From a phage, in sequence record PQ400055.1: a DNA stretch of 64,000 nt. One strand, given 5' to 3'. Positions 13,209-61,146 of the stretch are shown in pieces (positions within the stretch are counted from its first letter, which is position 1; every line of letters starts with the position of its first letter). Both the position numbers and the translations under genes were made by a program. The notes under the pieces are model-generated. The model was not told where the DNA came from. It worked only from the letters and a program-made list of their open reading frames with translations, and searched no databases.

Positions 13209-13236
13209 AATATATTCCTCAGTGTTTTGTCTTGAT

Positions 13237-13271
13237 GGGAGTATCTTACTACTCCCTTAATCCGGTGTCAA
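13237..13271 (-). promoter_or_regulatory. sigma70-type early promoter cassette with palindrome around the -10
   Basis: Minus strand TTGACA-17-TAAGAT; inverted repeat GGGAGTA/TACTCCC brackets the -10. Confidence 0.6.
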
Positions 13272-13282
13272 CTACTTTTAAA

Positions 13283-13603
13283 TTATTTTCGCCATTCACC
13301 GGAAACAATAAAGTTTGTAAAGTGATCGTGGTCCATGATAACGTCATTAAGTACCATATGTGGATACACTTTAGTGATAATTTTACTAAGTACCATATGC
13401 GGATATGCTTTAGTGTAATCACGTTTACGATCAGTCATCCAGCCAACGAAAGTTGGTGCAAAGTACGGTACACCGTCAGACGATGCCATATTAAACCCTT
13501 TATCAACCATAAATGCAGCCGCCCTAAGATTTTTAATTGAAGTAGTGCGACTAATTTCAAAAACTTTATCGGTAAAATTCATTTTAAGCCCCCGCTCGTG
13601 CAT
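13283..13603 (-). CDS. hypothetical protein containing a 13-aa tandem duplication
   Basis: 106 aa ORF; in-frame 39-bp tandem repeat at 13348-13422 (KAYPHMVLSKIIT / KVYPHMVLNDVIM). Confidence 0.45.
   Translation of the reverse strand: MHERGLKMNFTDKVFEISRTTSIKNLRAAAFMVDKGFNMASSDGVPYFAPTFVGWMTDRKRDYTKAYPHMVLSKIITKVYPHMVLNDVIMDHDHFTNFIVSGEWRK
13348..13422. repeat. 39-bp tandem direct repeat (2 copies) inside a coding region
   Basis: taagtaccatatgtggatacactttagtgataattt / taagtaccatatgcggatatgctttagtgtaatcac. Confidence 0.6.
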
Positions 13604-13793
13604 TAATACGCATTTTCTGTATAGCCATGATCTGGTTTACTGCTTCTTCTTTACGTTCTTGCGTGATAATGTGACCAGATTCCGCAAACTCTCCAGCAAC
13701 TTCTTCTACGATCTCGCGAACTTGAGAACGTCCAAAGATGCGGTTTCCTTCGTAGCTCATAAACTCTGTTACTACTTGCTCGATAGATTTCAT
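13584..13793 (-). CDS. hypothetical protein
   Basis: 69 aa ORF preceded by promoter cassette and RBS aggag. Confidence 0.5.
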   Translation of the reverse strand: MKSIEQVVTEFMSYEGNRIFGRSQVREIVEEVAGEFAESGHIITQERKEEAVNQIMAIQKMRINARAGA

Positions 13794-13815
13794 GTGATTC
13801 TCCTTTCGTTTGGTA

Positions 13816-13850
13816 TGGGAGTATGTTACTACTCCCTTATCTTTACGTCA
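13816..13850 (-). promoter_or_regulatory. sigma70-type early promoter cassette with palindrome
   Basis: Minus strand TTGACG-17-TAACAT; GGGAGTAgtaacaTACTCCC; then conserved leader and AAGGAG. Confidence 0.6.
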
Positions 13851-13858
13851 ACTAGTTT

Positions 13859-14101
13859 TTAGAAATTTTTCGCTTCTTCTTCGGTCATCATAACCGCGCA
13901 TTCGTGCATAACTTTGAAAACCGGATCAATCATGTCGAATGCTTCGCGGGACAGTTTACGAGAAGCGATTTTGATTGCTTCTACGTCTTCTACTACAGGA
14001 ACAAAAACAGTTTTCAGTTCGTCGAGGACGGCAGCTTCTTTTTCATTCAGGAAGATCCCAGCGTCGTACAGTGCAACTTCGATAACATTAACTTTAACCA
14101 T
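13859..14101 (-). CDS. hypothetical protein (start moved to internal ATG)
   Basis: ORF track gives 13859..14164, but that start overlaps the -35 of a promoter cassette; internal ATG at 14101 has RBS ggagg. Confidence 0.5.
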   Translation of the reverse strand: MVKVNVIEVALYDAGIFLNEKEAAVLDELKTVFVPVVEDVEAIKIASRKLSREAFDMIDPVFKVMHECAVMMTEEEAKNF

Positions 14102-14128
14102 TTTTATTTCCTCCAGTTCGTTTCGGTA

Positions 14129-14165
14129 TGGGAGTATAATACTACCGATGACCTTTGGCGTCAAC
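14129..14165 (-). promoter_or_regulatory. sigma70-type early promoter cassette
   Basis: Minus strand TTGACG-18-TATTAT followed by ACTCCCATACC. Confidence 0.5.
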
Positions 14166-14365
14166 TAGTTTTTTGTTATTTTCGTGAAATTTTTCGTCGC
14201 CTCATGTGCTTTTCGCTGGGCTTCTTGTTGTGCTTGCTGGCGTGCTGCCTCTTGCGATGTCATAACAGACGCATTTGCAGCAGTTACAGCCGCGACCATC
14301 GCTGCGGTATTAGCATTTACCGTACATGCACTAGCCAGCAAAGCAATCGCAATCATTTTCTTCAT
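14165..14365 (-). CDS. small secreted protein
   Basis: 66 aa; N-terminal signal peptide MKKMIAIALLASACTVNA; Ala/Gln-rich mature part. Confidence 0.5.
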   Translation of the reverse strand: MKKMIAIALLASACTVNANTAAMVAAVTAANASVMTSQEAARQQAQQEAQRKAHEATKNFTKITKN

Positions 14366-14601
14366 AGTTTCCCCTTTAGGTTATCTTCGACCTTCACCCA
14401 TTCCGCGTATTCTTGCGCGGCTACTTTCGGATTTAAGCCGTCTTCGTACATTGCTTCAAGTAATTCTTCGTCGGTGGGCTTATACCCTAGATAAGCCTCC
14501 ACCTGATTTTTCCAAATTTTATACCAGTTCATATTATCACCAATCAAGAGCGCGTGTCTCTGCGTCTTCCCATGCTTGATCCATAACAGCCTTGAAAACA
14601 T
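14362..14601 (-). CDS. hypothetical protein
   Basis: 79 aa ORF; 4-nt overlap with downstream ORF. Confidence 0.45.
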   Translation of the reverse strand: MFSRLLWIKHGKTQRHALLIGDNMNWYKIWKNQVEAYLGYKPTDEELLEAMYEDGLNPKVAAQEYAEWVKVEDNLKGKL

Positions 14602-14808
14602 ATTCTAGAGTATCATCTTTAGAGAATCCGAAGACCTTAGACGGAATATCTTCAATTGCTACTCCCGCAACTTCTGCATTACGCGCTTGGCAATAATGCA
14701 ACTCTAAGTTATCGAGATAGCGACCGCCTAATTTCTCCATATCATCCCAGCATTTCCAGTAACCTACTTTATCTGCAATTGCCAACACTTTGCTGTTTTC
14801 GTTGTTCA
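14537..14808 (-). CDS. hypothetical protein (start moved to internal ATG)
   Basis: Internal ATG at 14808 preceded by ggagaatcaaag RBS and promoter cassette; track start 14872 lies inside the promoter. Confidence 0.5.
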
Positions 14809-14834
14809 TCTTTGATTCTCCTTTTGTTTGGTAT

Positions 14835-14869
14835 GGGTGTATTATGCAATGTTGGATTCTGTAAGTCAA
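14835..14869 (-). promoter_or_regulatory. sigma70-type early promoter cassette
   Basis: Minus strand TTGACT-17-CATAAT then ACACCCATACCAAAC...AAGGAG...ATG. Confidence 0.55.
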
Positions 14870-14882
14870 CAACTTTTTAAAA

Positions 14883-14910
14883 TAAAAAAGCCGACCACAA
14901 GGATCGGCTT
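14883..14910 (-). terminator. rho-independent terminator (minus strand)
   Basis: Minus-strand aagccga-tccttgtgg-tcggctt followed by ttttttatttt; same stem as the gene 35 terminator. Confidence 0.7.
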
Positions 14911-14919
14911 AATAATCAG

Positions 14920-18920: not shown

Positions 18921-18973
18921 TCCTCTATTAGTTGGGCGACTATTGCCGCCCGATTCACATCATTATACCAGAA

Positions 18974-19105
18974 TTATTTTGCTTCGACAACCTTGCGGAT
19001 TGTGCGGTCTGATACATTATAGATTCGTGCCAGTTCGCCTTTAGTCAAACCGCGAGCGTATTGTTTACGGATGGTTTCTTTCTGGATGGCGGTCAGTTTA
19101 GTCAT
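18974..19105 (-). CDS. small HTH protein resembling the rIIB N-terminus (not in ORF track)
   Basis: 43 aa, MTKLTAIQKETIRKQYARGLTKGELARIYNVSDRTIRKVVEAK; RBS aagaggtg; resembles T4 rIIB LTKNEQAEIVKLYSSGNYTQQELADWQGVSVDTIRRVL. Confidence 0.45.
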   Translation of the reverse strand: MTKLTAIQKETIRKQYARGLTKGELARIYNVSDRTIRKVVEAK

Positions 19106-21896: not shown

Positions 21897-21920
21897 ATAA
21901 GTCAACCTTTTGTTTTCGAT

Positions 21921-21955
21921 GGGGACATTATGATATATCCCCGATCCAGTGTCAA
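21921..21955 (-). promoter_or_regulatory. sigma70-type early promoter cassette with palindrome
   Basis: Minus strand TTGACA-17-CATAAT; GGGGA...TCCCC brackets the -10. Confidence 0.55.
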
Positions 21956-21962
21956 CAGATTT

Positions 21963-22262
21963 TTAATCTTTTTTCAATGCATCCATTACTCGCTCTGCGA
22001 TCAGTTCTCGTAAGCACTGATAACCATGATATTTGATGGCAATGTCACGCAGATCATTAACCAGTTCCCGTACTTCATGGTCTTTCAGATCGTCTCTGTA
22101 TTTCGATTTAACCGTGTCTTTAGGTGGATTGTGGATAACCTGAAAACCTTGTTCTGCAATCACTGCGGCTTCTCGCTGGCGTTCATGTTGTACTGTATTT
22201 TTTATCAGGTCTACTTCCATGAACTTTGTCATACTCATCATCATGTTATTCTTTTTGCTCAT
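21963..22262 (-). CDS. hypothetical protein (start moved to internal ATG)
   Basis: ATG at 22262 with RBS gaggat; longer track ORF would run through the promoter cassette and the end of gp39. Confidence 0.5.
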   Translation of the reverse strand: MSKKNNMMMSMTKFMEVDLIKNTVQHERQREAAVIAEQGFQVIHNPPKDTVKSKYRDDLKDHEVRELVNDLRDIAIKYHGYQCLRELIAERVMDALKKD

Positions 22263-22284
22263 TATTAAATCCTCATAAACGAAA

Positions 22285-22324
22285 AGGGAGACTCCCATTA
22301 TAGAGAATCTCCCTTGTATGTCAA
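22285..22324 (-). promoter_or_regulatory. sigma70-type early promoter cassette with palindrome, downstream of gp39
   Basis: Minus strand TTGACA-16-TATAAT; GGGAGA...TCTCCC inverted repeat. Confidence 0.55.
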
Positions 22325-22327
22325 GTG

Positions 22328-24151
22328 TTATGATTGCATCCAAATTTTGCGGCGGTCTGAATCTTCGCTATAGAGCAAATCGAATAGCTCTTTATAGTTT
22401 TCCGGTAACGTGATGATTTCCATTACAGGATCGTTGATCACGCGATGATAATCTGATTCTGTAAGAGATGCTAACCCTTTGATATATCGAATGCTATAAC
22501 CTTTGATATTATCTCGGTCGTTCTCGAAATCTTCTAGGTCATAATACCATCGAACATCATCACCTTTCTTTGGTTCCGCAATGATAATAGGTGTTTTGAT
22601 AAACCGGATTCGTCCATCTTCGAACAATTCAGGCCAACGTGCAAAGAAAGAGATCAGACTAGGTTTAATAGACCCGATCCCGTCAGTATCAGCGTCTGTC
22701 ATAATCGCAATATTTTTGTATTGCATAACTTCCAATGCATCAACACCAAATTGCAAACCAGTGATCGCCATGATGTTAAAAATTTCGGCGTTCTTAACGA
22801 TCTTTGCCTCCGGTTGTTCCCACGTTGTAAGAGTTTTGCCTCGCAACGGGAAACCTCCATGTAAATCTGGATCACGTACAGAGACCAGATAGTTGATCGC
22901 GGAATCACCTTCCGTCAAAAACAGGGTAGTTTCTGCGTCAGTTCCAATAAGGTTAGCTTTAACGTGTTTTGCTACCTTAGCCCGTTTCGCTGCTTTGGCT
23001 GCCTTAGTCGCTGCCGCTTTATCTGCTGCCTCTTTGCGTGCCAGGACTACAGCAATAATAGGCATGATAATGTTTTCTTTCTTCGCAATGACTTTAGCCA
23101 GCTTTTTAAAATCAAGATCAATATGACGCTTGATATCACCAGTTGGATTAGTCAATCGTTCTTTTGTCTGTGAATCAAAACGAAGGTTAGGCAATTCACG
23201 AACAATAAGAATACAGGTCAATCCAGACTTAACCGCAGCTTTAGTAACATCAACCTTATGTTCTTTCTTGATTCGTTTTACAATCTCTTCACAAAGATCA
23301 TCTGTCACGTAGTCTACGTGTGTTCCCCCGTTTTTGGTAAACAGACCATTAGCAAAGGATACTGATTTAAAACCTTCTCCCTCGACCGCAGGAACTAGGG
23401 CAAGTGAAAAGTTTTTATCTTCAATGACAAACGGATCATCATTGTATAGTTTAGCATAATCCTTGAACTTACTAACAATACGTTTACCATTAAACTTAAA
23501 CGTGATCTTAGGAAAGATTACGCTCAATGATTGCAGACGATCATGAACAATATCTAAAACAGAGTTGTCCATCATATAACCTTCGAAGTGGTCGAAGTCT
23601 GGACAAAATGTAACCTTTGTTCCCTTCAATTTTGATGGTTTCGATGACCATGTGATATTTTCAGCACCGTTTGTACATTGAACGGTCATTTCTGTTTCTC
23701 CGTCACAGGTCACACCAGTAAACCAATCGCTAAAGAAATTTGACAACGACGACCCCACACCGTTCATCCCTTGCGTTAATCGATTGGTATCATCAAAGTT
23801 AGACCCTGCTTTTGTTCGTGTCCATGCGGCTACAGGTTGCGGAATCTGCGTGCCCTCTGGGGTAGTAACCATATGTTGAGGAATACCGCGACCGTTGTCT
23901 GTTACCGTAACAATATTGTTTTGGATATCGACGCTAATCACATTGGCAAATTCAAAATTAGTGCGAATCGCCTCGTCTACAGAGTTGTCGATGATCTCAT
24001 CAATGATTTTAACCAGTCCTGGAACATATGAAATTTTTGTCCATTTACCGAACAGGAAACGTTGGTGTTCTTCGTAAGTTGTTGATCCTATATACATTCC
24101 TGCACGCTTAAGGACATGTTCACGATCAGATAAAATGCGAAACTCACTCAT
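22328..24151 (-). CDS. 39: DNA topoisomerase II large subunit (gp39 with fused gp60 portion)
   Basis: 607 aa; N-terminus LSDREHVLKRAGMYIGSTTYEEHQRFLFGKW...GLVKIIDEIIDNSVDE matches T4 gp39; C-terminal TOPRIM-like IAIMTDADTDG; one continuous ORF. Confidence 0.9.
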   Translation of the reverse strand: MSEFRILSDREHVLKRAGMYIGSTTYEEHQRFLFGKWTKISYVPGLVKIIDEIIDNSVDEAIRTNFEFANVISVDIQNNIVTVTDNGRGIPQHMVTTPEGTQIPQPVAAWTRTKAGSNFDDTNRLTQGMNGVGSSLSNFFSDWFTGVTCDGETEMTVQCTNGAENITWSSKPSKLKGTKVTFCPDFDHFEGYMMDNSVLDIVHDRLQSLSVIFPKITFKFNGKRIVSKFKDYAKLYNDDPFVIEDKNFSLALVPAVEGEGFKSVSFANGLFTKNGGTHVDYVTDDLCEEIVKRIKKEHKVDVTKAAVKSGLTCILIVRELPNLRFDSQTKERLTNPTGDIKRHIDLDFKKLAKVIAKKENIIMPIIAVVLARKEAADKAAATKAAKAAKRAKVAKHVKANLIGTDAETTLFLTEGDSAINYLVSVRDPDLHGGFPLRGKTLTTWEQPEAKIVKNAEIFNIMAITGLQFGVDALEVMQYKNIAIMTDADTDGIGSIKPSLISFFARWPELFEDGRIRFIKTPIIIAEPKKGDDVRWYYDLEDFENDRDNIKGYSIRYIKGLASLTESDYHRVINDPVMEIITLPENYKELFDLLYSEDSDRRKIWMQS

Positions 24152-28155: not shown

Positions 28156-28179
28156 AATTGATTCTCCTTAGTTGGTATG

Positions 28180-28213
28180 TGTGTATTATTGTCTATCTGG
28201 TTTGTGCTGTCAA
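28180..28213 (-). promoter_or_regulatory. sigma70-type early promoter cassette
   Basis: Minus strand TTGACA-17-AATAAT then ACACACATACCAACTAAGGAG...ATG. Confidence 0.5.
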
Positions 28214-28216
28214 CAC

Positions 28217-28720
28217 TTAAATTAAAGAAAATTTGTAAATCTCTATCAGATCGCCGTTACACGCGTAAACTTCCTCGATCTCATCAAGGATCATGGTCGT
28301 CCCTGTCTTGTATATGCACTCGCGCTCATCTGCCAACATAGCATACAAAGACAGTCGAGTAGTCGGATTGTCATACTCTTTAGACACCACTCGGTCAATA
28401 GCATGTTCGTAATAATTCATGCAAGGCTTGGTAGGTTTTATTGCAATAATCTTTCCTGTTGCATAAACATCGGTTGCAAAGTCCTCTGCTGTTGATTGTA
28501 GTGGCGTAAAGCTCATAGGACGCTCTACAACGAAAGAATCACCCACAATTAAGGTATCCAGCTTACGGCCTTCTCTTTTGCTCACACCGCGATACAAGGC
28601 TTCATGATGCACTAACCGCTCAGTCTTTTCAATCAATCCATTAAGGATCGACATATCGATATTTTCTTTAGAGTTCATCACTTCATCAATGATGTTAAGT
28701 TCTTCTGGTGTAAATTGCAT
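28217..28720 (-). CDS. putative mono-ADP-ribosyltransferase (ModA/ModB-like)
   Basis: 167 aa; candidate R-S-E triad in order (ALYRG ... MSFTP ... DERECIY); T4 modA/modB position. Confidence 0.5.
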   Translation of the reverse strand: MQFTPEELNIIDEVMNSKENIDMSILNGLIEKTERLVHHEALYRGVSKREGRKLDTLIVGDSFVVERPMSFTPLQSTAEDFATDVYATGKIIAIKPTKPCMNYYEHAIDRVVSKEYDNPTTRLSLYAMLADERECIYKTGTTMILDEIEEVYACNGDLIEIYKFSLI

Positions 28721-28727
28721 AATAAAA

Positions 28728-28781
28728 AAGCCTCCAATCTTTCGACGGGAGGCATAATAAAACCATTATAGAGTAGTGTCA
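28728..28781 (-). promoter_or_regulatory. promoter followed by a stem-loop that contains the RBS of the ModA-like gene
   Basis: Minus strand TTGACA-17-TATTAT, then gcctccc-gtcgaaagatt-ggaggc-ttttttatt-ATG; the GGAGG RBS is the 3' arm of the stem. Confidence 0.5.
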
Positions 28782-28789
28782 ACTAATTT

Positions 28790-29314
28790 TTAGTAGCCGC
28801 GTTCTTGACGGGCGAAGTTTTCAGCATTTTTCAGATAGTACAGAATAAAGAGTTCTTGAGCGTCAATACCCAGCGGGATCATCTTTGACAGAATGAAGTG
28901 GATCGCGTCCACAAATTCAAATTTCACTTCAAGCTGATCTTCCGGTGACAGTTCAGAGAATTTACGCGCTCGCGCTTCTCCGTGGTTCTTTTTCCACATT
29001 TTCCAGATTGCACTTGCATCTTTACCATTGGACATTCCACCCAGCGATGTGTAAAGCTCTCGTGTTTCGTCTGCGATAGCGTCATCCATCCGTTGCATCC
29101 AATCCAGCATTTCACCGCAAGTCTCTAGCTTAGTTGGATTTGGGACCCAATCAAATTTTTCGGATAATGCAACCTGCAAACCAGTTTGCATTTCGAGCAT
29201 CACCTGAAACGGATCTTTACCTTCTGCAATAGCGTGATGATATGCGGCGATAGCCGCGTTAATATCTTTTTCGTTAACCAGACCAGCACAAGAATTAAAT
29301 TCTGACATATTCAC
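28790..29314 (-). CDS. 56: dCTP pyrophosphatase (gp56, MazG-like)
   Basis: 174 aa (T4 171 aa); C-terminus ...YYLKNAENFARQERGY and EFVDAIHFIL as remembered for T4 gp56; position before gene 61. Confidence 0.75.
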   Translation of the reverse strand: MNMSEFNSCAGLVNEKDINAAIAAYHHAIAEGKDPFQVMLEMQTGLQVALSEKFDWVPNPTKLETCGEMLDWMQRMDDAIADETRELYTSLGGMSNGKDASAIWKMWKKNHGEARARKFSELSPEDQLEVKFEFVDAIHFILSKMIPLGIDAQELFILYYLKNAENFARQERGY

Positions 29315-35031: not shown

Positions 35032-35092
35032 CGTATATTTCTCACGTTGGCGGGTATCGTCACCCAACACCCGCCATTATACACACTTTATC

Positions 35093-37771
35093 TTAAATGT
35101 CAAACAGGTCAGTCAGAGAAGCAACTTTCTCATATTGCAGCTTTGCAGCCGTGGTAATGTTCTCCAGTGGTTTGACGAAAGTCTTATTAAACAACAAAGG
35201 CCAGTCTAACCACTTTAACACCTCTGATTCAATTTCTGGAGGAATACGAGTACCGGACAACCAACCAAAACAGATTTCTCCAAACGGATTTCGATCTTTC
35301 AGCGGTACAATCATAACCTTCTCGCCCTCACGAATTGGATCTAGTCCGAATTTTCGAGCATTACGATTATAACACAATACACTCTTAACCGCATACGGAC
35401 AACCCTTAATCGGATACCCGTTTGAATCGCTGTATTTCTGTAGGTTGTTTGCAGATGATACCGCAGCAACCTCAAGATAATCAAGTTTTCTAAATTCTTG
35501 CTCAAAAATACCGTAGTATTCCTGCAATGACTCTTCACCTTCCTGCAACATACGGCGAATACATTCTTTCAGTGATTTCTGACATGCTTTAGGGGTGGAG
35601 CTACGTTGCGTTTCCAAGCCCATGATTTTTAGCTTAGGTTCAGCAAAGCGCGTTCCTTCCATATCCCAAACATTAAGAGCATAACGCTTTTTGCCAGTCC
35701 AGAATCCACCGATACCCGCAGATTTCAACGGAGGACCAGCAATTGCCTCACGGTCCATAAACATCAAGTGCTCATAGTTGTTCATGTACTCGCATAACTC
35801 GCGATATCCCTTGTCGATAATAGGTTCCATTCGATGTTTACCGAAATTATCAAGGAAGTCAACAAGTTTTTCGGTATCGTCGAAACGGTCTTCCCCGCCA
35901 ACCTTATCAACAACATTGTTAACCAGCACATAAACGGAGTCAGTATCACAATAACGAACATATGCAAAATCGGTTGTTCCGCAAAGCTCGTTTAAGTATT
36001 CGTTAATCTTACGCTCAATCCACTGAATTGCAAGCTGACCAAACAAGGTGATCGCACTAGCGTTACGGAGATCATAAAAACGGAATTTAGGATTCCCCAA
36101 CGCACCATAAAGGGAGTTGATCAAAACTTTTCGAGAAAGCTGGTTTGTATTGCACAAGATCGACTCGTCTTTACATTCTTCCAGCAATTTCTCTAAGGCA
36201 TCTTTACTTAATTCAGAAAGCATCGATTTAAACGCTTCATCAAAGTCGTGACGTACTTCAACGCTATAGCTAATGGTTCCCCCATAAACATGATTTTCAT
36301 CGTGTAGAATCGCTTTACAGAGTTCAGCATTGCGATCACATGCCAACATCATGTTTTTGTACTGCTTACGCTGATCGAATACCTTTTTAATCTCAATCGG
36401 TACGATACCGTGAATATCTTTTCTATACATCCATCCGTTAGGAGAGCAAGAATACTCATCACTCGGACGTGGTGCAGTTTTATTGATATACTCGTGCATC
36501 GGTGCAGCATCAAAAGATCCGGCGATTGTTTCCGGCGAAATGTTAACCTGTCGAATAATAGATGGGTACAGACTTGTTAAGTCAAAGCTCATCATCCAAC
36601 GGTAAGCATTCGGCACAGGTTCTTTTACGAATGCGCCTGGATACGTCTGCTTAGGCTGTATCTTATTTTCCGGTACTACTTTACCCTCAGCTTTCAGAGA
36701 TCCGAAGATAATAGCATCCCATACTTTCATCGGGTTATAAACATGGTTAAATTTAATCTTTGCATAGAAACATAGACTATACACAAGATCGATAAATCCA
36801 CGCTTTTTATCAATCGCCAGCACACGATCAACGTCGCCGATGTTATAATCGATGTAAAGTTGATGGTTGTCATCACGCAATTTCTTTAACGGACCATCAT
36901 AATCAACCTTACCGATTCCTGTCTCATATTCAGCAACATAATCTAACGCATATGTTGGTTGAGTCGTAAAGCTAAATTTCTTGTACAGGTCAATATAATC
37001 AAGGCTTTCGATCCCCATGATCGTAAATGCTTCACGCTCGTTGCCAAAATCATCCTGTGAGATTCGGGATTTAATCTTACCGCACGGGCTTAGACGGTTA
37101 GCGGTTCTACTTCCGAACTTATTACTGATACGTTTAATGATATATGGAATATCGAATGTTTCTGTGTTCCAGCCAGTGAAACCAACGGGTCGGTTTTCCT
37201 CAAAGAATCGGATGTATTCTAACAGCAATTCATCTTCTGTGTCATAGACGTTATAAACAACGCGCTCTACAATATCAGGTCGAAGAATAGACTTGCTTGC
37301 TTCCCAGATTTCACCGTTTTTTCCCTTCAAATCAAATACAAAGAAACGATCATGTACTGAATCATAATGCGTAATTGCATCGATAGGATATTTCGCTTCT
37401 TCTGGTTTAGGAAATTCTGGGGCAGTGACCTCGATATCAACCCATGCTACACGGATTTTATTTCGGTCATATCGAATCTCTCCTTTATACGTATCAGACA
37501 GATAGGAGATGATAAAATCATCCATCCCTAGCGCCTCTTGCCCCATTTCTCCCATCTTTTTACGCCATTTGTTGGCCTCGTTCATAGAGGGGAATTTTTT
37601 AGCAATGCAAGGCTTGCCATAGATATCTTTATAATTCGTAACCATACCAGGCGCGGCATGATGAAATAAAGTTGGCGTATATTCAACGTAACGCTCTTGT
37701 TCTTGTCCAGCATCATCAATATAACGCTCGTAGATCTTATCACCTACTCGCTCACATGACAGAAAATACAT
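35093..37771 (-). CDS. 43: DNA polymerase (gp43, family B)
   Basis: N-terminus ...VGDKIYERYIDDAGQEQERYVEYTPTLFHH...KDIYGKPCIAKKFPSMNEANKW matches T4 gp43; ATG at 37771 has RBS ggag and a promoter cassette upstream (track start 37801 lies inside it). Confidence 0.92.
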   Translation of the reverse strand: MYFLSCERVGDKIYERYIDDAGQEQERYVEYTPTLFHHAAPGMVTNYKDIYGKPCIAKKFPSMNEANKWRKKMGEMGQEALGMDDFIISYLSDTYKGEIRYDRNKIRVAWVDIEVTAPEFPKPEEAKYPIDAITHYDSVHDRFFVFDLKGKNGEIWEASKSILRPDIVERVVYNVYDTEDELLLEYIRFFEENRPVGFTGWNTETFDIPYIIKRISNKFGSRTANRLSPCGKIKSRISQDDFGNEREAFTIMGIESLDYIDLYKKFSFTTQPTYALDYVAEYETGIGKVDYDGPLKKLRDDNHQLYIDYNIGDVDRVLAIDKKRGFIDLVYSLCFYAKIKFNHVYNPMKVWDAIIFGSLKAEGKVVPENKIQPKQTYPGAFVKEPVPNAYRWMMSFDLTSLYPSIIRQVNISPETIAGSFDAAPMHEYINKTAPRPSDEYSCSPNGWMYRKDIHGIVPIEIKKVFDQRKQYKNMMLACDRNAELCKAILHDENHVYGGTISYSVEVRHDFDEAFKSMLSELSKDALEKLLEECKDESILCNTNQLSRKVLINSLYGALGNPKFRFYDLRNASAITLFGQLAIQWIERKINEYLNELCGTTDFAYVRYCDTDSVYVLVNNVVDKVGGEDRFDDTEKLVDFLDNFGKHRMEPIIDKGYRELCEYMNNYEHLMFMDREAIAGPPLKSAGIGGFWTGKKRYALNVWDMEGTRFAEPKLKIMGLETQRSSTPKACQKSLKECIRRMLQEGEESLQEYYGIFEQEFRKLDYLEVAAVSSANNLQKYSDSNGYPIKGCPYAVKSVLCYNRNARKFGLDPIREGEKVMIVPLKDRNPFGEICFGWLSGTRIPPEIESEVLKWLDWPLLFNKTFVKPLENITTAAKLQYEKVASLTDLFDI

Positions 37772-37803
37772 AATATAAACTCCTTCACTTACGAAAGACA
37801 CTC

Positions 37804-37832
37804 ATTATAGGGGAATCGACTTAGTTTGTCAA
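37804..37832 (-). promoter_or_regulatory. sigma70-consensus promoter upstream of gene 43
   Basis: Minus strand TTGACA-17-TATAAT between regA stop and the gp43 start. Confidence 0.6.
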
Positions 37833-37853
37833 TACCCCTATCCCATCAGTATC

Positions 37854-38796: not shown

Positions 38797-39785
38797 TATA
38801 CGAACTCCAATTCAACCATTAATTGCATTAACAAAAAGACAATGTGAATCTCTTTATCAGCCGCGTGCGCAAACATCTGATTATTTTCACCAATAATCTC
38901 GGTCAGACGAATAATAGACGCTGGCTTAACTTGAGTATACAACTCATTATAAAGTTTCTTGACAAATTGAGCGTATGTATTGGTATAGCGTGGCGCGAGT
39001 TTACGCACATTAGCAAACTGTTTAGTTTTAAGTGCTTCCACCACATCGGTTACTTCGGTATTGCTACTTTCGATAACCATGCTCAATACGCCAGCATCAA
39101 TTTTACCATGTTTAGCGTAGCGGTCCAAAAGTTTCATTACGCGTCGGAAGTCTGGGAAGTTCTGCTTAACCAATTCCGCTAATACGCGCATTTCTTCTAC
39201 TGGTACACCTTCTTTATCAAGAATTGCTTTACACCGGACGATCATTTCTTTCATCATGCGAAGCTGATCATCTTTAGTCGGAGATCCAAACGTGATGGGG
39301 TCAAAACGAGATCGTAACGCTGGGATAATACCTTCTAGATCGTTTGCTGTGATAATGAATGTTACATTGTTTGAGTATGCCTCAGAGAAACTACGCAAGT
39401 GTCTTTGAGCATCAGCTAGCCCCGCTCGGTCATACTCATCGATAATAACAACTTTGCCTTTTTCTCGTTTTTCTTCATCGAGTGATACACTCTGCGCAAA
39501 GCGTGTAATCTCATCTCGGATAAAATCAATCTTACAATCTGCGCCGTTAACAAACAGATAATCAACACCCACATCTTCGCAAAGCGCCTTAGCAACGGTT
39601 GTTTTACCAGTACCCGGCGATGGGCTATGCAGAATCATTGAAGGGATTCGGCCTTGCTTAACAATCTGCGCGAAGATCTTTTTATCTGCTTCCGGCAGAA
39701 TACATTCAGAAATTGATTTCGGACGGTATTTCTGTTCCCACTGAAACTCATTTTCATTAACACTCAGCATATAATCACCTCTCAC
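38796..39785 (-). CDS. 44: clamp loader large subunit (gp44, AAA+)
   Basis: 329 aa; Walker A SPSPGTGKTT, Walker B IIDEYD; regA-62-44-45 order. Confidence 0.88.
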   Translation of the reverse strand: MRGDYMLSVNENEFQWEQKYRPKSISECILPEADKKIFAQIVKQGRIPSMILHSPSPGTGKTTVAKALCEDVGVDYLFVNGADCKIDFIRDEITRFAQSVSLDEEKREKGKVVIIDEYDRAGLADAQRHLRSFSEAYSNNVTFIITANDLEGIIPALRSRFDPITFGSPTKDDQLRMMKEMIVRCKAILDKEGVPVEEMRVLAELVKQNFPDFRRVMKLLDRYAKHGKIDAGVLSMVIESSNTEVTDVVEALKTKQFANVRKLAPRYTNTYAQFVKKLYNELYTQVKPASIIRLTEIIGENNQMFAHAADKEIHIVFLLMQLMVELEFV

Positions 39786-39798
39786 AAATTACATCATT

Positions 39799-39824
39799 AA
39801 AACGGGGAGTATTTTATACTCCCC
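39799..39824 (-). terminator. stem-loop with T-tract between genes 45 and 44
   Basis: Minus-strand ggggagtat-aaa-atactcccc followed by gtttt; just downstream of a -10 element. Confidence 0.55.
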
Positions 39825-39830
39825 ACAAAC

Positions 39831-39859
39831 ATTATATTAGTCGGTGTAGCTGGAGTCAA
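39831..39859 (-). promoter_or_regulatory. sigma70-type promoter at the 3' end of gene 45
   Basis: Minus strand TTGACT-17-TATAAT; followed by the GGGGAGTAT/ATACTCCCC stem-loop. Confidence 0.45.
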
Positions 39860-40526
39860 GGTCACACGCGATCATATAAGATACGGTTTCACTTGCCAGC
39901 CATACAGCCTTACGGCGAGTGAAGCTCAGTTTGTAATCGCCGAAGTCAGTAGCAACCAGTTTCATGTTATCTTTACGAATAAAGAAATGGAAGTCTGCGG
40001 TTCCGGTATATTCGCCCATATCAAGACAAAACATCTCATTAGGATTATTTTTGTCAATCTCTTCCCAACCTTTGATCATCAGACGACCATCAATCGGAAG
40101 AAATTCAAGGCGGTCCACTTTAAGCTGATTGCTCATTTTCATAAGCTGTTTCAGATCGTCGTTGCTCAGTTCGTAATCTACATCGCTTGCAGGTGGAGTA
40201 ACTCGGCCTTTCGGTGATACGATAGCAGCAGCACTAGCACCAGGATAATTAATTTTCAGACGATCATTAGACACACGAATGTTTCCGGTGCGGTCATCAA
40301 CCGTAATATCTGCTTCATCGCCTACCAGATTCAGAATACCCAGGAAAGAGTTAAGATCATAGATCCCAATTTCGTGTTCCAGTTCTTGATTCAGAGTCGC
40401 TTCACCATATACAACGTTTGTCATGTTTTTGGTGATTAGGACGTTTCCTTTTTTCAGGATGATACCTGGGTTAATAGCGGAAAAGTTTTTCAGGGTAGCA
40501 ATGGTTTCTTTAGTCAGTTTCATCAA
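39837..40526 (-). CDS. 45: sliding clamp (gp45)
   Basis: 229 aa; MMKLTKETIATLKNFSAINPGIILKKGN...IYDLNSFLGILNLVGDEADI matches T4 gp45. Confidence 0.92.
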   Translation of the reverse strand: MMKLTKETIATLKNFSAINPGIILKKGNVLITKNMTNVVYGEATLNQELEHEIGIYDLNSFLGILNLVGDEADITVDDRTGNIRVSNDRLKINYPGASAAAIVSPKGRVTPPASDVDYELSNDDLKQLMKMSNQLKVDRLEFLPIDGRLMIKGWEEIDKNNPNEMFCLDMGEYTGTADFHFFIRKDNMKLVATDFGDYKLSFTRRKAVWLASETVSYMIACDLDSSYTD

Positions 40527-44596: not shown

Positions 44597-44621
44597 AATA
44601 ACCTCCAATCAATTTTTAATG

Positions 44622-44651
44622 AGTATAACGGGGATTTCTCCCCGCGTCAAC
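44622..44651 (-). promoter_or_regulatory. sigma70-type early promoter cassette with palindromic spacer
   Basis: Minus strand TTGACG-18-TATACT; CGGGGA-gaaa-TCCCCG palindrome in the spacer. Confidence 0.5.
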
Positions 44652-45676
44652 TAACTTTTTGCGCTATTTACTTCTGCTAAAAGTTCATCAGAGATACGCT
44701 TAACTGCCGCAAGTTCTTCCGGTTCTAGGTTTTGTTCTTCCAGATATTCATAGACCATCTGAATAGTGCTTTTAACTTCAATAACACCTGTTTCCTGTGA
44801 TGCGCTACTCTCCAGTTTATGGACCACTTTTAGCTTGTGTACAACGGCCTCTAACGCGCTTTCTAACTTAGTTAACCCATTATCAGCAACCGTTGCAATA
44901 AGACGCACACTAAGCCCCTTAAAGCGTTCTACATCGATTTTATCATCTGACGGGTAAGTGATACGCACATGATAAGTTTTGTCATTCTGGATAAACTCTT
45001 TTTTGTGTGTATCGGTATCGAATACCCAAAACCCACGCGGATCGTTTTCGTCACCCGCCGTTAGTGTGTATGGTGTACCGATATACGTTACATTACCGCC
45101 ATCGCTGATAGTATGAAAATGACCGGAAAACACTTCACGGTATTTCTTGAGGAAGTCCGCGCTATAACCTTCGGATTTTAGCCCTTTATAGAAATAGTAA
45201 CCGGACAATTCCCAATGGCCTACACAATATTCGCTGAATGAGTTTTGAATAAACTCTAAAATCTCTGATTTATTGTCATCACAAAACCACGGGAACAGAT
45301 CAAATGATACACCATCAAAGGTAACTGTTTCCGGTTTATCGATAACCTTAATGCAATCATACTGGCTTAACACTTCACGCGGTGCGTTAGGCTGGATCTT
45401 GTTTCGTTTAAACATATCATGGTTCCCGACCGTGATATAACAAGTAATTCCAGCCTCTTCCAGTAATGGGATGACCTTAGTACGGTTAAATTTCATGGTT
45501 TCATGGGTAATTGCTTTTCGGCAATCAAACCAATCCCCTGTTTGAATCCATGTCTTAATATTATGCTCTTTGGAGTATTCAACCGCCTTCTTGATGGTAT
45601 CAAGAATATACTCATGCACCCACGGATCATCGCCACCGATACCAGTATGCAGATCACCTAAAAGCAAAATTTTCAT
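44651..45676 (-). CDS. 47: recombination endonuclease subunit gp47 (Mre11/SbcD-like)
   Basis: 341 aa (T4 339 aa); calcineurin-like phosphoesterase motifs LGDLH, GNHD, GHFH. Confidence 0.88.
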   Translation of the reverse strand: MKILLLGDLHTGIGGDDPWVHEYILDTIKKAVEYSKEHNIKTWIQTGDWFDCRKAITHETMKFNRTKVIPLLEEAGITCYITVGNHDMFKRNKIQPNAPREVLSQYDCIKVIDKPETVTFDGVSFDLFPWFCDDNKSEILEFIQNSFSEYCVGHWELSGYYFYKGLKSEGYSADFLKKYREVFSGHFHTISDGGNVTYIGTPYTLTAGDENDPRGFWVFDTDTHKKEFIQNDKTYHVRITYPSDDKIDVERFKGLSVRLIATVADNGLTKLESALEAVVHKLKVVHKLESSASQETGVIEVKSTIQMVYEYLEEQNLEPEELAAVKRISDELLAEVNSAKS

Positions 45677-52047: not shown

Positions 52048-52091
52048 ATATTTGATTCTCCTGTAAAGTTGTATCTCGTCTTGATGAATAT

Positions 52092-52120
52092 AGTATAGGG
52101 GATCTCGCGATCCCCGTCAA
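52092..52120 (-). promoter_or_regulatory. sigma70-type early promoter cassette with palindromic spacer
   Basis: Minus strand TTGACG-17-TATACT; spacer GGGGATC-gcga-GATCCCC. Confidence 0.55.
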
Positions 52121-52124
52121 GCAT

Positions 52125-52673
52125 TTATTTTAAATTTTTTCGAATGTAGTCAGACCATTCCTTCCCTGTCAGTTCGGTCCCATTCTGGAAACTGAAATAT
52201 TCATACGGCATCGAGTCAAGATAAAACAGGATCATACATCGCGCCATATAATACCAATCACGATTAAAGTAAACTACGTTATCGCCAGTACCATCAGCAC
52301 CTTTATCATAACCATCGCGGGTACGGGCGACCCATTGAATAGTATCATTTTTCTCACGGATCGTAACAGGTTCCCAATATCCAGCACATCCAGCATGACC
52401 ACACGAACAAGTAATGAAATATTGTCCTTTTGCTTTGTTGTCATCCCATTCACGATGGATTGGTTCGATCTCGTGAAACAGTGCTAAGCAATCATGATTA
52501 TGCAACACTGGCTTACCATCAATCAATGCATGGAATGTATACAAACGACCCGTAGACAAATAGCTATCCTCACGCTCAACCAGTTCAATAGCAATCTTTT
52601 TAGCTCGTTCTTTGTGTCGTTGTGCTTTACGCTTACGGTTTAATGATTTCATATTCACCTCACACATTATCAA
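52125..52673 (-). CDS. hypothetical Cys-rich protein
   Basis: 182 aa; basic N-terminus; CSCGHAGCAGYW cluster. Confidence 0.5.
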   Translation of the reverse strand: MIMCEVNMKSLNRKRKAQRHKERAKKIAIELVEREDSYLSTGRLYTFHALIDGKPVLHNHDCLALFHEIEPIHREWDDNKAKGQYFITCSCGHAGCAGYWEPVTIREKNDTIQWVARTRDGYDKGADGTGDNVVYFNRDWYYMARCMILFYLDSMPYEYFSFQNGTELTGKEWSDYIRKNLK

Positions 52674-53209: not shown

Positions 53210-53238
53210 GTTGTCCTCTCGTTGTTTTCGATGTGAGC

Positions 53239-53266
53239 ATTATACATTAGCTAATCATGTTGTCAA
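53239..53266 (-). promoter_or_regulatory. sigma70-type early promoter cassette
   Basis: Minus strand TTGACA-16-TATAAT then ...CATCGAAAACAACGAGAGGA...ATG. Confidence 0.55.
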
Positions 53267-53278
53267 CACCCCAAAACG

Positions 53279-53303
53279 AAAAAGCCGACCCTTTCGGATC
53301 GGC
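53279..53303 (-). terminator. rho-independent terminator after nrdD
   Basis: Minus-strand agccga-tccgaaaggg-tcggct followed by ttttt. Confidence 0.65.
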
Positions 53304-53309
53304 TGAAAT

Positions 53310-55711: not shown

Positions 55712-55735
55712 AATATAATCCTCTCGTTGTTAAGT

Positions 55736-55769
55736 GGGAGTATTATAGCATACTCCCTTCGCATGTCAA
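55736..55769 (-). promoter_or_regulatory. sigma70-type early promoter cassette with palindrome
   Basis: Minus strand TTGACA-16-TATAAT; GGGAGTAtgctataaTACTCCC; leader ...CAACGAGAGGATTATATTATG. Confidence 0.6.
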
Positions 55770-56944
55770 GCACTAACTTTTTTCTTTACTGCTTTCACCT
55801 TCTGGCGAATTGCTCGAATCTCTTCGATCTCTTTTTCAGTCTCTTTAACAATTTCTTTGCGATTCTGAATATCTGTATCTAGATTATCATCAAGTTTAGG
55901 CAGCATGTCAATCAAGAACTTTTTAAAGTCTTTCAGGTTTCGGATAACAGCACCTTCACCCATTACCGCCACGCCTACACCATCCGGCAGATCACCAAAC
56001 AGCTTAACCAGTTCAGACAGATGATCATGATCTTCTAGTGCTTCTTCCGGTTCAGATGGCAGTTCAACAAAGTTATAACGTTCATCATTGCTGATCAAGT
56101 GATACCAGCAAAGACCGAAAGATTTCGGTGTATATTCTACACCATCAATTTCAACCGCGTCAACACTTCCATAATCATCTACTTTAGTTACCTTAAATCC
56201 TTGTCCCAGCTTTTGAACAATTTCAACAACATGACTTGATACAGTTTCAGCGGTAAACCAATATGGCAAATTATGCTGATTTGGTTTGTAGCGTTCACCT
56301 ACTTTAAATCTCTGACCATCCGCTTGCATAGAATGAAATTGTTGTTTCGTGATTTCCGCGAAGTATTCAAATTCGCTACCGTCAAACAAGCAATTCCATT
56401 GATCACAAAAACGGTCCGCCTTGACGGTTTCACCTTTCGCGGTGATCATGGTAGCTGATCCGTGCAATTCTTCTTCAACTAAAAAGCCATATTCGACAAA
56501 ATCAACAAGTTTCATGGCTTCTTTGTGCTCTGGGTCATGCTCTCCCCAGAATCGCTTAAATTCTTGCAAACCTTCTGGGGTAAACGAATAACATTTACCT
56601 TTTTCAAAGTAAGTCGGCATTGCATCCTCTTTCTTGTTCATCGCTTCGTATGCCTCTTTTGAGATACGTTTAAAGTATTTGCGCTCATTGTGCATAATCA
56701 TAGTAGACCAATAATAAACGATATCCTCAGCGGAATAAACTACATCTCCAGCTTCAATAGTAATAACATGACCGTGGTCATCTTTTTCTAATACTTTAAA
56801 GCCCTTTTCTACGATTTCAGCAACCCGAATATGACCACGGCGCGAAGCATCGGTCAGAATAATTGAATAGCGAGAAAAGTCTAGAAACTCATCTTTACCG
56901 CCTTCACGGAATGCATAGTAATGACCTTCAAAGAATTTAGCCAT
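55766..56944 (-). CDS. paralogous-family protein (multi-repeat member)
   Basis: 392 aa; repeated ...YYAF...GFKVL...ERKYFKRISKE... units plus C-terminal coiled coil. Confidence 0.55.
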   Translation of the reverse strand: MAKFFEGHYYAFREGGKDEFLDFSRYSIILTDASRRGHIRVAEIVEKGFKVLEKDDHGHVITIEAGDVVYSAEDIVYYWSTMIMHNERKYFKRISKEAYEAMNKKEDAMPTYFEKGKCYSFTPEGLQEFKRFWGEHDPEHKEAMKLVDFVEYGFLVEEELHGSATMITAKGETVKADRFCDQWNCLFDGSEFEYFAEITKQQFHSMQADGQRFKVGERYKPNQHNLPYWFTAETVSSHVVEIVQKLGQGFKVTKVDDYGSVDAVEIDGVEYTPKSFGLCWYHLISNDERYNFVELPSEPEEALEDHDHLSELVKLFGDLPDGVGVAVMGEGAVIRNLKDFKKFLIDMLPKLDDNLDTDIQNRKEIVKETEKEIEEIRAIRQKVKAVKKKVSA

Positions 56945-56969
56945 AATATAATCCTCTCGTTGTTTAGAT

Positions 56970-57004
56970 GGGAGTATCTTACTACTCCCGTTTCATCATG
57001 TCAA
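56970..57004 (-). promoter_or_regulatory. sigma70-type early promoter cassette with palindrome
   Basis: Minus strand TTGACA-17-TAAGAT; GGGAGTAgtaagaTACTCCC; near-identical to the copy at 13237. Confidence 0.6.
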
Positions 57005-57585
57005 GCGTTAAATGACTTTTGGATCTCTTTCAGTTCTTCCACTTTCTCGGCGCTGAATTTAGCGTAGGTATCATGTCGAATAATTTCACTTTCAAGAAAG
57101 GTTTCCAGTCGAGATCTATTTTCAATAAGGAACTCTTTCAGGTCTTCCGCGTTCTTGATAAAGATTTTATTGTCGGTAATGTCATCTTCAATCGCAAAGG
57201 AGATAGAGCGAACTTTACCAAACAAGTTAATCAGATCTTCCAGAGATTCTTCTTTCTTAACTGGTTTCATTTCTTCAAACTGCTTTTTAGTGATGCGTTT
57301 AAAGTATTTGCGCTCGCTTGCATCAATCATGATTGACGCACCCTCATAATCATGAGTTTCTACCAAATACACTTTACCCATAACATTAACCGTAAGAACT
57401 TTAAAGCCCCTGTGAAGCACACCATACAGGAACTTGTTATGTTGTGGGTAGCGTTTAACAAATTCCTCTGCGGACTCAGCATTACGGAAAGTGTAATAAC
57501 GACCTCGTTCAAAAACAGCATCATTTGAAGACTTAGCCGGATACAATTTATACGTTTTCTGTACCATAATATAATCCTCTATCAT
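57001..57585 (-). CDS. paralogous-family protein
   Basis: 194 aa; GRYYTFRNAESAEEF...GFKVLTVN...ERKYFKRITKKQFEEM plus coiled coil. Confidence 0.55.
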   Translation of the reverse strand: MIEDYIMVQKTYKLYPAKSSNDAVFERGRYYTFRNAESAEEFVKRYPQHNKFLYGVLHRGFKVLTVNVMGKVYLVETHDYEGASIMIDASERKYFKRITKKQFEEMKPVKKEESLEDLINLFGKVRSISFAIEDDITDNKIFIKNAEDLKEFLIENRSRLETFLESEIIRHDTYAKFSAEKVEELKEIQKSFNA

Positions 57586-57854: not shown

Positions 57855-57879
57855 TGTTGATTCTCCTTCTTGATTAGAT

Positions 57880-57914
57880 GGGAGTATTTTACTACTCCCA
57901 TTTCTTATTGTCAA
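57880..57914 (-). promoter_or_regulatory. sigma70-type early promoter cassette with palindrome
   Basis: Minus strand TTGACA-17-TAAAAT; GGGAGTAgtaaaaTACTCCC. Confidence 0.6.
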
Positions 57915-57917
57915 CTA

Positions 57918-60767: not shown

Positions 60768-61112
60768 TTATTTCACGTTAACGCCGTTATCAATCCAGCC
60801 GACGCTATTTGGTTTAACAGTTTTACCATAGGATGCATACTTAATCAAGCATGGTTTAACATCATTATCAAATCTTCCTAAACGTACTCCCAAATCAGGA
60901 ATATCCATGTATGCGGCTTTATATCCCCATGTACCGTATTCAGAATCAATCTCAACCGGACGGCCTTTAAAAGCATACACTACACCGTGACGGTCAACGA
61001 TAACATAGCGATAGCCAGCCGGAAGATACACAGTTTCGCCGTAAACTTTAACTGGAGTAGCAGAAGAGATAAACATAATATAATCCTCACATCGTTCATT
61101 TGATGCGGTCAT
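60768..61112 (-). CDS. hypothetical protein
   Basis: 114 aa ORF. Confidence 0.45.
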   Translation of the reverse strand: MTASNERCEDYIMFISSATPVKVYGETVYLPAGYRYVIVDRHGVVYAFKGRPVEIDSEYGTWGYKAAYMDIPDLGVRLGRFDNDVKPCLIKYASYGKTVKPNSVGWIDNGVNVK

Positions 61113-61146
61113 TATATGATAACCGCATTTTCATGTCAACAGTTTT

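Follow-up and report, generated by a model that had tools for sequence, protein, structure and literature searches.

Promoter early stem-loop cassettes of the RB49/phi1 type in a genome segment of a Krischvirus isolate

The 64,000-nucleotide stretch of phage DNA analyzed here (sequence record PQ400055.1; hereafter the window) carries on its minus strand a dispersed family of promoter cassettes, four of which lie in the interval 13237-14869. We identify these, with a probability of nearly nine in ten, as the already published promoter early stem-loop elements (PeSLs) of the RB49/phi1 type, which are recombinogenic cassettes joining a promoter to a stem-loop. Every feature that defines a PeSL at the level of sequence was found. 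This is the rediscovery of a published element class in a new isolate of a known genus: the window is a segment of a Krischvirus genome (RB49-like T4-type coliphage, Straboviridae), with 94-99.6% identity to the same 59 records in all three of its parts, and over 13100-15000 its identity is 99.4% with FL37, 99.3% with kaaroe and about 97% with RB49 and GEC-3S. A preliminary description made from the raw sequence had proposed PeSL-like cassettes of an RB49-type phage, and the type of the phage, the features of the cassettes and the PeSL-bounded gene cassettes of its relatives all bore this out.

PeSLs were described by Arbiol et al. (2010; Genome Biol Evol 2:140, PMC2839356) in RB49 and phi1, at about 51-52 per genome, as composites of a sigma70-consensus promoter, an AT-rich upstream tract, a stem-loop with polyG/polyC arms in one of five positions, and a Shine-Dalgarno (SD) sequence with start codon. 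They cluster in hyperplastic regions and are found alongside gene 43 and nrdD as well. In the same work lacZ fusions of whole PeSLs (PeSL193/192 and 206/205) gave about 13,000 Miller units, the stem-loop of PeSL211/210 terminated transcription about as well as rrnB T1, and the junctions of mini-circles fell in the AT-rich tract or between the -10 element and the SD; the authors also speculated on a DNA-binding protein at the repeats, recombinational or structure-specific (PMC2839356). Comeau et al. (2014; PMC4122927) gave the RB49/phi1 formula as TTGACA-N17-TATAAT with G(N)-loop-C(N). Nolan et al. (2006) reported RB49 early promoters with G at -33, agreeing with 5'-end mapping, and found RB49 to lack both motA and a middle-promoter consensus.

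Twenty-one minus-strand cassettes were found, lying between genes or with only the -35 element in the end of the upstream gene; they are named here by the first base of the -35 (Table 1). Each matches the sigma70 consensus at at least 9-10 of 12 positions with a spacer of 16-17 nt, and seven are perfect. All 18 minus-strand sites listed in the preliminary description exist, and the four within 13237-14869 have their -35 starts at 13271, 13851, 14164 and 14869. Its coordinates marked the low end of each cassette (-10 or leader) and were off by 0-26 bp, and 18990, 35103 and 61139 are additional to its list. The pattern it gave, TTGAC[AGT]-N16-18-TA[TA]NAT, matches 23 times on the minus strand of the window and never on the plus strand, while several of the listed sites depart from it at the -10 (CATAAT at 14869 and 21955, AATAAT at 28213, TATACT at 44650, 52120 and 61815).

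Chance or base composition as the source of the promoter matches was ruled out by scoring TTGACA-N16-18-TATAAT on the sense strand of 10600-64000 against Markov-1 and Markov-3 simulations, with the antisense strand as control. Matches at 10 or more of 12 positions numbered 61 (15-17 expected, 11 antisense), those at 11 or more numbered 28 (about 0.9 expected, 2 antisense), and nine were perfect (about 0.02 expected, none antisense). A lax scan at 9 or more of 12 was only weakly enriched (62 vs. 52; 72 vs. 56), so that the promoter signal resides in the near-perfect class. It had been stated beforehand that a motif equally frequent inside coding sequence would speak against the cassettes; the 2,379 intergenic bases contained 21 matches and the 51,021 coding bases 40, which makes the matches 11-fold denser between genes. 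Motif discovery had also been suggested as a check, and de novo repeat and k-mer analyses returned the cassette, its stem arms and the ribosome-binding word as their top signals. The largest direct-repeat families of the window were the promoter-plus-stem unit (D2, D3), the leader (D13) and the word GAGGATTATATTATG (D1), and the most intergenic-specific 6-mers were ACTCCC, CTCCCA, GGAGTA and GGGAGT, followed by SD words, TATAAT and GTTGAC.

The units are 55-110 bp long (typically 65-85 bp) and span the gap between two minus-strand genes in the order upstream stop codon, A-rich tract, (G)TTGACA-N16/17-TAnnAT, G-arm/C-arm hairpin, short leader, strong SD and start codon. In most copies the upstream gene ends with its stop codon 0-21 nt ahead of the -35 or within it, as in the TGA inside cTTGACA at 55769 and 57004 or the TAG abutting the -35 at 14164 and 44650; at 14869 and 53266 a terminator hairpin comes between stop codon and -35, which are then 43-50 nt apart, and at 18990, 35103 and 39859 the -35 is itself within the end of the upstream gene. 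The consensus 5' of the -35, aAaaaA.t.G, provides the AT-rich tract. The ATG comes 23-61 nt (median 32) after the -10, and an SD motif was present in 17 of the 20 copies checked; 63887, which lay outside the scoring script, also has AAGGAG. As the preliminary description had it, a conserved leader and ribosome-binding site follow the promoters, in two leader types (..CATACCAAAC.AAAGGAGAATCA..ATG and ..AACAACGAGAGGATTATATTATG), and the -35 hexamer is TTGACA where T4 has GTTTAC, in agreement with the G at -33 reported by Nolan et al. (2006). No Mot box, (a/t)(a/t)(a/t)TGCTTtA at -30 in place of the -35, was found at any of the 21 sites, all of which have a -35 of the TTGAC type. With respect to location, 12 of the 21 cassettes lie in two stretches rich in ORFans (13.2-14.9 kb and 52-64 kb), and copies border gene 43 (35103, 37832) and nrdD (53266, with 55769 nearby). 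The GEC-3S record has predicted promoters or terminators at the orthologous places of 19 of the 21.

The word GAGGATTATATTATG occurs at at least eight gene starts whether or not a promoter is present (plus-strand coordinates 12125, 21229, 33694, 55709, 56942, 57565, 61074 and 63527; families D1 and D5), and is a genome-wide preferred ribosome-binding site, not specific to the cassettes.

A G-arm/C-arm inverted repeat of 5-9 perfect pairs was found in 20 of the 21 cassettes, with the G-rich arm first in all of these except 28782, which begins GCCTCC. Sixteen of the 21 regions fold well beyond their dinucleotide shuffles (z below -1.5; mean z = -2.0), and all five published stem-loop positions are represented. 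Transcription is predicted to start downstream of the 5' arm in 18 of 20 copies, and in seven the 3' arm reaches exactly to -1 or +1 of the predicted start; therefore the cassette's own transcript cannot form the hairpin, and RNA reading through from upstream can. A canonical U-tract (at least 5 T in 8) follows only six hairpins (14869, 22324, 28782, 39859, 53266 and 63887); those at 13243-13262 and 56976-56995 are among the hairpins that lack it. Stem sequences recur, GGGAGTA in five copies with a sixth such stem, GGGGAGTAT, at 39859, and GGGGATC in two.

One of the six hairpins with a U-tract contains a gene's SD. Between gp56 and modB (28725-28753, minus strand), the SD of modB lies in the 3' arm of the terminator-like hairpin GCCTCC-N12-GGAGGC + T6, the 5' arm of which starts 6 nt ahead of the predicted start of the adjacent promoter. 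From this geometry, read-through RNA would terminate with the SD masked and the promoter's own RNA would not.

Other readings of the inverted repeats were considered and dropped. Antisense terminators did not hold up as a general rule, an antisense tail of at least 5 T in 8 being present in only 3 of 20 copies; a T-rich plus-strand tail follows two of the GGGAGTA hairpins. Enrichment of Dam sites (GATC), prompted by two stems in which GATC occurs twice, was rejected with 12 sites against 11.4 expected over all the cassette spans. Rfam 15 gave no match at the gathering score in the whole window on either strand.

The inverted repeats might also act as double-stranded DNA, either as operators for a dimeric phage regulator that silences early promoters or as targets of a recombination or structure-specific protein. 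Such a role would suit the 14 hairpins that have no U-tract, the recurrence of the stem sequences, and the fact that perfect palindromes are identical on both strands. At least nine different stems occur, in five positions that include ordinary terminators 50-75 nt upstream of the start, and diversity of this kind in sequence and position is more easily reconciled with selection on the structure than on a single binding sequence. Extrusion as a cruciform needs longer stems than these 5-9 bp, and a candidate regulator was not identified. A DNA-binding protein was raised as a possibility by Arbiol et al., who also showed one stem-loop to terminate transcription (PMC2839356), and on this evidence we consider a DNA-level role highly improbable. 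It is unlikely, too, that the 14 hairpins without a U-tract, especially the seven that end at -1/+1, are a distinct device rather than terminators; such a device could be a DNA palindrome bound by a putative phage protein in early shut-off or cassette exchange, or an element that acts in RNA at 3' ends or in antisense termination. If this were true, the hairpin device might belong to a different early-to-late switch, which is conceivable because RB49-like phages lack MotA.

That the cassettes are PeSLs which recombine was examined over the whole minus-strand region in GEC-3S, RB49, LF73P4, Phi1, PTE-Eco09 and MIZ4, with partial comparisons for Brandy, SSG23, Skers, E26 and kaaroe (10-18 kb) and for PHB13 and pEJ01 (44-64 kb). 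In transcription order the interval 13237-14869 reads A-P-[I-P]-B-C-D-P-E-P-F-[G]-P-[H-P], where P is a cassette and brackets mark variable parts; genes E and F span 13859-14101 and 13584-13793. Gene I (68 aa; LF73P4, Brandy, SSG23) and gene H (51 aa; RB49, Phi1, Brandy, SSG23, Skers, E26) each have a cassette on either side; both genes are missing from the window, which has one cassette at each spot. Up to its -10, the 14869 cassette matches the left flank of I at 51-68 of 74 positions (66-68 in LF73P4 and Brandy) and the right flank at 18-20, while the following 48 nt match the right flank at 45-47 positions and the left at 29-36; this switch puts the crossover between the -10 and the SD. 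The core of 13271 matches the right flank of H at 28-29 of 29 positions (29 in Phi1 and E26, 28 in RB49 and Skers) vs. 14 of 29 for the left flank, and the 45 nt farther upstream match the Phi1 left flank of H at 41 of 45, an alignment that places the crossover in the A-rich tract or the -35. As judged from these comparisons, the single cassettes of the window at the I and H spots are chimeras of the pair that flanks the gene in relatives.

Shuffling of flanked genes by recombination between copies was thus seen for I and H, and also for the block at 61815, the link being partial elsewhere. In LF73P4 homology to the window begins 18 bp ahead of the -35 of the 61815 cassette, and everything farther upstream is unrelated sequence. 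With respect to gene content, the seven genes upstream of this cassette (window 61825-64000) are exchanged in LF73P4 (L007 1-3230) for six unrelated open reading frames (ORFs). In Phi1 the loss of D-P-E has one end at a cassette.

With respect to sequence likeness among the copies, the preliminary description had called several of them nearly identical over about 50 bp, naming those at 13271, 57004 and 57914; these are only 69-76% identical over 51 nt and have in common an identical block of about 25 nt, GGGAGTAGTAA(G/A)ATACTCCCATC (GGGAGTAGTAAgATACTCCCATC), together with the -35, whereas they diverge in the first half of the spacer. The elements had also been called mobile or recombinogenic. 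The gene swaps bounded by PeSLs and the chimeric cassettes uphold the second term, and mobility is confined to this phage genus: the 68-nt cassette 56945-57012 occurs only in 59 Krischvirus records among 50,697 phage records (404 places, typically 5-8 per genome in the records listed), and the exact cassette core in only three IMG/VR contigs, all Krischvirus-sized. Spread beyond the genus is ruled out by these searches, and mobile here therefore means mobile within it.

It could be argued that the cassettes are ordinary early promoters with neighboring terminators which evolved independently, came to resemble one another by convergence on -35, -10 and SD, and have no special role in recombination. 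The mean pairwise identity of the family is 42% over 51 nt (26% background), its conserved columns are mostly the functional hexamers, cassette positions from 44 to 64 kb are conserved among nine genomes, and many indels are unrelated to cassettes, all of which convergence would explain. It would not explain why subfamilies share non-consensus sequence, such as the GGGAGTA/TACTCCC stem and identical core of about 25 nt in five copies, or why 61815 and 52120 are 78% identical over 96 nt. Nor does it fit the 27 of 29 positions shared by 61815 and the PeSL upstream of H in RB49 and Phi1 (hyperplastic region 1), loci 48 kb apart in different genomes. The most intergenic-specific 6-mers include the stem words ACTCCC and GGAGTA, chimeric single cassettes stand exactly where relatives have a gene-flanking pair, and mini-circle junctions have been published (PMC2839356). 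Convergence is accordingly improbable in our judgment.

Several observations weigh against the identification as recombining PeSLs. The evidence on the window's own copies is that of sequence, the expression and termination data coming from other copies. Lacking a U-tract, 14 of the hairpins fall outside the canonical intrinsic terminators, which leaves the label of terminator unproven for most copies. Some orthologous stems are disrupted by point mutations in relatives (ACTACC in GEC-3S and RB49), and compensatory stem changes between orthologues were not seen, the changes lying in loops or breaking stems, so that the support for structure comes from paralogues with different stems. Fifteen sense-strand matches of at least 11 of 12 fall within genes, where about 0.9 were expected; ten of these are in the final 30% of the gene, 17-170 nt ahead of the next start codon. 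Gene G (13283-13582), missing from most relatives, has a cassette on one side only. The conserved positions of the 44-64 kb cassettes count here as well, as does the fact that most changes of gene content in that part are HNH-endonuclease insertions or tandem duplications; over the region as a whole, the remaining differences (endonuclease insertions, tandem duplications and a replacement at 11005-11213) are not bounded by cassettes. When endonuclease insertions and tandem duplications were left aside, 7 of 13 indel ends lay at a PeSL vs. 22% of gene junctions with a PeSL, a rough, small and post hoc tally.

The HNH homing-endonuclease genes of some relatives are inserted at 58711, 45677, 36569 (within gp43) and 22324-22328, and the window carries none of them. 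They lie between nrdC and dam in GEC-3S, PHB13 and pEJ01, before gp47 in MIZ4, inside gp43 (splitting it) in PTE-Eco09 and MIZ4, and between gp39 and the cassette in LF73P4.

Compared with the published PeSLs of RB49 and phi1, the window showed no essential difference: genus, promoter consensus, AT tract, stem-loop positions, SD with start codon, hyperplastic regions, gene 43 and nrdD borders, cassette indels and crossovers in the AT-rich tract or between -10 and SD are all alike, the window being another mosaic isolate without cassettes I and H and with gene G, and with 21 cassettes in this 53-kb stretch against about 51-52 per whole genome (PMC2839356). The PeSLs of T4/PST and KVP40/nt-1 are likewise composites of promoter, stem-loop and SD between small variable genes and are tied to indels and replacements, but differ in their promoters (TTTACW..TAYWAT and TTGYVH..TAWWAT) and stems (AGNA-loop-TCNT and A3-4G3-loop-C3T3-4), which lie mostly upstream of the promoter (PMC4122927). 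T4 early promoters are similarly used by unmodified host sigma70 polymerase right after infection, with the same register, an A-rich upstream tract and a common G at -36 (GTTGAC in 13 intergenic copies); their -35 is GTTTAC, in contrast to the G at -33 here, and they are not generally fused to a G/C hairpin. By analogy only, integron attC cassettes are also small promoter-proximal genes exchanged as units between short imperfect inverted repeats, with circular intermediates reported, whereas PeSL exchange has no known integrase or site-specific recombinase and is seemingly homologous over 15-25 nt, and each cassette brings its promoter.

In the mechanism proposed for the PeSLs, unmodified host RNA polymerase would use the near-consensus sigma70 promoters immediately after infection, and the hairpin, formed in read-through RNA, would insulate the cassette from upstream transcription. 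The units have patches of identity of 15-25 nt in common and the efficient homologous recombination of the phage can therefore cross over between them; such crossovers would delete, insert or swap the intervening small genes, and a transferred gene would retain its own promoter, insulator and ribosome-binding site. Use of the window promoters by host sigma70 polymerase is very likely, given their sequence and the published tests on sister copies. Insulation is likely for the six U-tract hairpins and, going by geometry, stands at roughly even odds for the other 14. Cassette exchange by homologous recombination over the 15-25 nt patches is well supported for I and H, and PeSL exchange is probably one of several routes of gene turnover.

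Table 1. Promoter cassettes of the window, named by the first base of the -35; spans are on the minus strand, and D2, D3 and D13 are direct-repeat families.
Cassette	Span	Promoter	Hairpin position	Hairpin	Stop codon, leader and genes	Annotation and comparison
13271, PeSL	13209..13285	TTGACA-17-TAAGAT	overlapping -10	GGGAGTA-N6-TACTCCC	leader, SD GAGGA; ATG at 13208	orthologous promoter annotated in GEC-3S; relatives have cassette H and a second PeSL at this spot
13851, PeSL	13794..13862	TTGACG-17-TAACAT	overlapping -10	GGGAGTA-N6-TACTCCC	leader CATACCAAACGAAAGGAGAATCAC; ATG at 13793	D2, D13
14164, PeSL	14102..14180	TTGACG-17-TATTAT	overlapping -10, degenerate	5' arm mutated; z = -0.96	TAG abuts -35	D2, 68%
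14869, PeSL	14810..14919	TTGACT-17-CATAAT	T-run terminator upstream of -35	AAGCCGA..TCGGCTT + T-run	leader	
18990, promoter	18921..19000	weak -35 TTGTCG; -10 TATAAT	just 3' of -10	GGGCGGC..GTCGCCC, in 5' untranslated region	-35 inside upstream small ORF; before rIIB	GEC-3S promoter
21955, PeSL	21897..21966	TTGACA-17-CATAAT	overlapping -10	GGGGA-N12-TCCCC		GEC-3S promoter
22324, PeSL	22275..22330	TTGACA-16-TATAAT, perfect	overlapping -10	13 bp, AAGGGAGA..TCTCCCTT + T-run; z = -4.4		GEC-3S promoter and terminator
28213, promoter cassette	28156..28220	TTGACA-17-AATAAT	absent (sole copy)		leader CATACCAAC..AAGGAGAATCA; before srd	
28782, PeSL	28721..28792	TTGACA-17-TATTAT	just 3' of -10	GCCTCC-N12-GGAGGC + T6	between gp56 and modB	
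35103, PeSL	35032..35110	TTGACA-16-TATAAT, perfect	just 3' of -10	TGGCGGGT..ACCCGCCA, begins at -10 edge	-35 inside gene 43 end; at gene 43 3' end	GEC-3S promoter
37832, PeSL	37772..37853	TTGACA-17-TATAAT, perfect	enclosing -35	ATAGGGG..CCCCTAT, encloses -35 and spacer	upstream of gene 43	GEC-3S promoter
39859, PeSL	39771..39866	TTGACT-17-TATAAT	just 3' of -10	GGGGAGTAT-aaa-ATACTCCCC + GTTTT	-35 in gene 45 end; between gene 45 and gene 44	GEC-3S terminator
44650, PeSL	44597..44655	-10 TATACT			TAG abuts -35	GEC-3S promoter
52120, PeSL	52050..52128	-10 TATACT				78% identity over 96 nt to 61815
53266, PeSL	53210..53309	TTGACA-16-TATAAT, perfect	T-run terminator upstream of -35	AGCCGA..TCGGCT + T-run	downstream of nrdD	GEC-3S promoter and terminator
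55769, PeSL	55712..55775	TTGACA-16-TATAAT, perfect	overlapping -10	GGGAGTAT-N6-ATACTCCC	TGA inside -35	
57004, PeSL	56945..57010	TTGACA-17-TAAGAT	overlapping -10	GGGAGTA-N6-TACTCCC	TGA inside -35; leader ..AACAACGAGAGGATTATATTATG	D2, D3
57914, PeSL	57855..57920	TTGACA-17-TAAAAT	overlapping -10	ATGGGAGTA-N6-TACTCCCAT		
61139, PeSL	61077..61150	TTGACA-17-TATAAT, perfect	overlapping -10	ATGCGGT-N12-ACCGCAT		
61815, PeSL	61745..61831	-10 TATACT				LF73P4 homology to window begins 18 bp upstream of -35
63887, PeSL	63831..63930	TTGACA-16-TATAAT, perfect	T-run terminator upstream of -35	GGCTATCC-ttcg-GGATAGCC + T-run	leader CATACCAAC..AAGGAGAATCA	GEC-3S promoter and terminator

In the gene map built for the window and corrected by the GEC-3S annotation, bases 22-10599 hold the plus-strand tail-fibre genes 34-37 and a holin gene. 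From 10635 to the end of the window all genes are on the minus strand and comprise ORFans, gp52, rIIB, rIIA, gp39, dexA, dda, srd, modB, gp56, gp61, gp41, uvsX, gp43, regA, gp62/44/45, gp46/47, gp55, nrdD/G, gp49, dam and further ORFans. The gene rIIB is broken into two minus-strand ORFs (17918-18664 and 18603-18920) by one additional A in a homopolymer at about 18640-18660, which is A7 in the window and A6 in GEC-3S, Phi1 and MIZ4; this is either a true frameshift mutant or a sequencing error. A 58-nt direct repeat (25335-25392 and 25512-25569; 90% identity, spacing 177 bp) sits among small paralogous genes (ORF009/009.1/010 of Phi1), and its copy number varies between relatives.

The in-gene matches of at least 11 of 12 include those at 63638, 58037, 55911, 51522, 48918, 48828, 41682 and 41564, with others at 40664, 32667, 24241, 18486 and 12251, and two perfect promoters on the minus strand (19348-19376 and 21312-21340), of which one falls within the end of rIIA and the other immediately ahead of that gene. 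They look like promoters embedded in coding sequence, without the hairpin and leader of the cassette. At 12128-12150 (minus strand) a half cassette, kept in relatives, joins GTTGTTGAC directly to the ribosome-binding leader GTGAGGATTATATTATG without a -10, and Phi1 carries three tandem copies of the 27-bp unit AAGTACAACCGAAAATAAGTTGTTGAC at this spot. In the gap that separates a-gt.4 from gene 47, upstream of gp47 (45677-45766, minus strand), a strong terminator (AAGGGAGACTC..GGGGTTTCCCTT + T-run) is followed by an extended -10-like sequence, TGATATAGT, without a -35, which may be a different type of promoter. Overlapping late promoters of the T4 type were looked for and rejected, the motif TATAAATA being present in no cassette; it occurs once in the 64 kb, at 5097 (plus strand), 41 nt upstream of gene 36.

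What is added here is a map of the individual copies in this isolate, two cassettes with clean chimeric junctions, and the finding that canonical terminators are a minority among the hairpins. The published picture is unchanged by these data, and their main value is as a check of the pipeline, in which a reader of raw sequence recognized a published cassette class. With respect to the biology of these phages, PeSLs account for the expression of dozens of small early genes from host-type promoters without the middle-mode machinery of T4, and for the gain and loss of small early genes as self-contained units.

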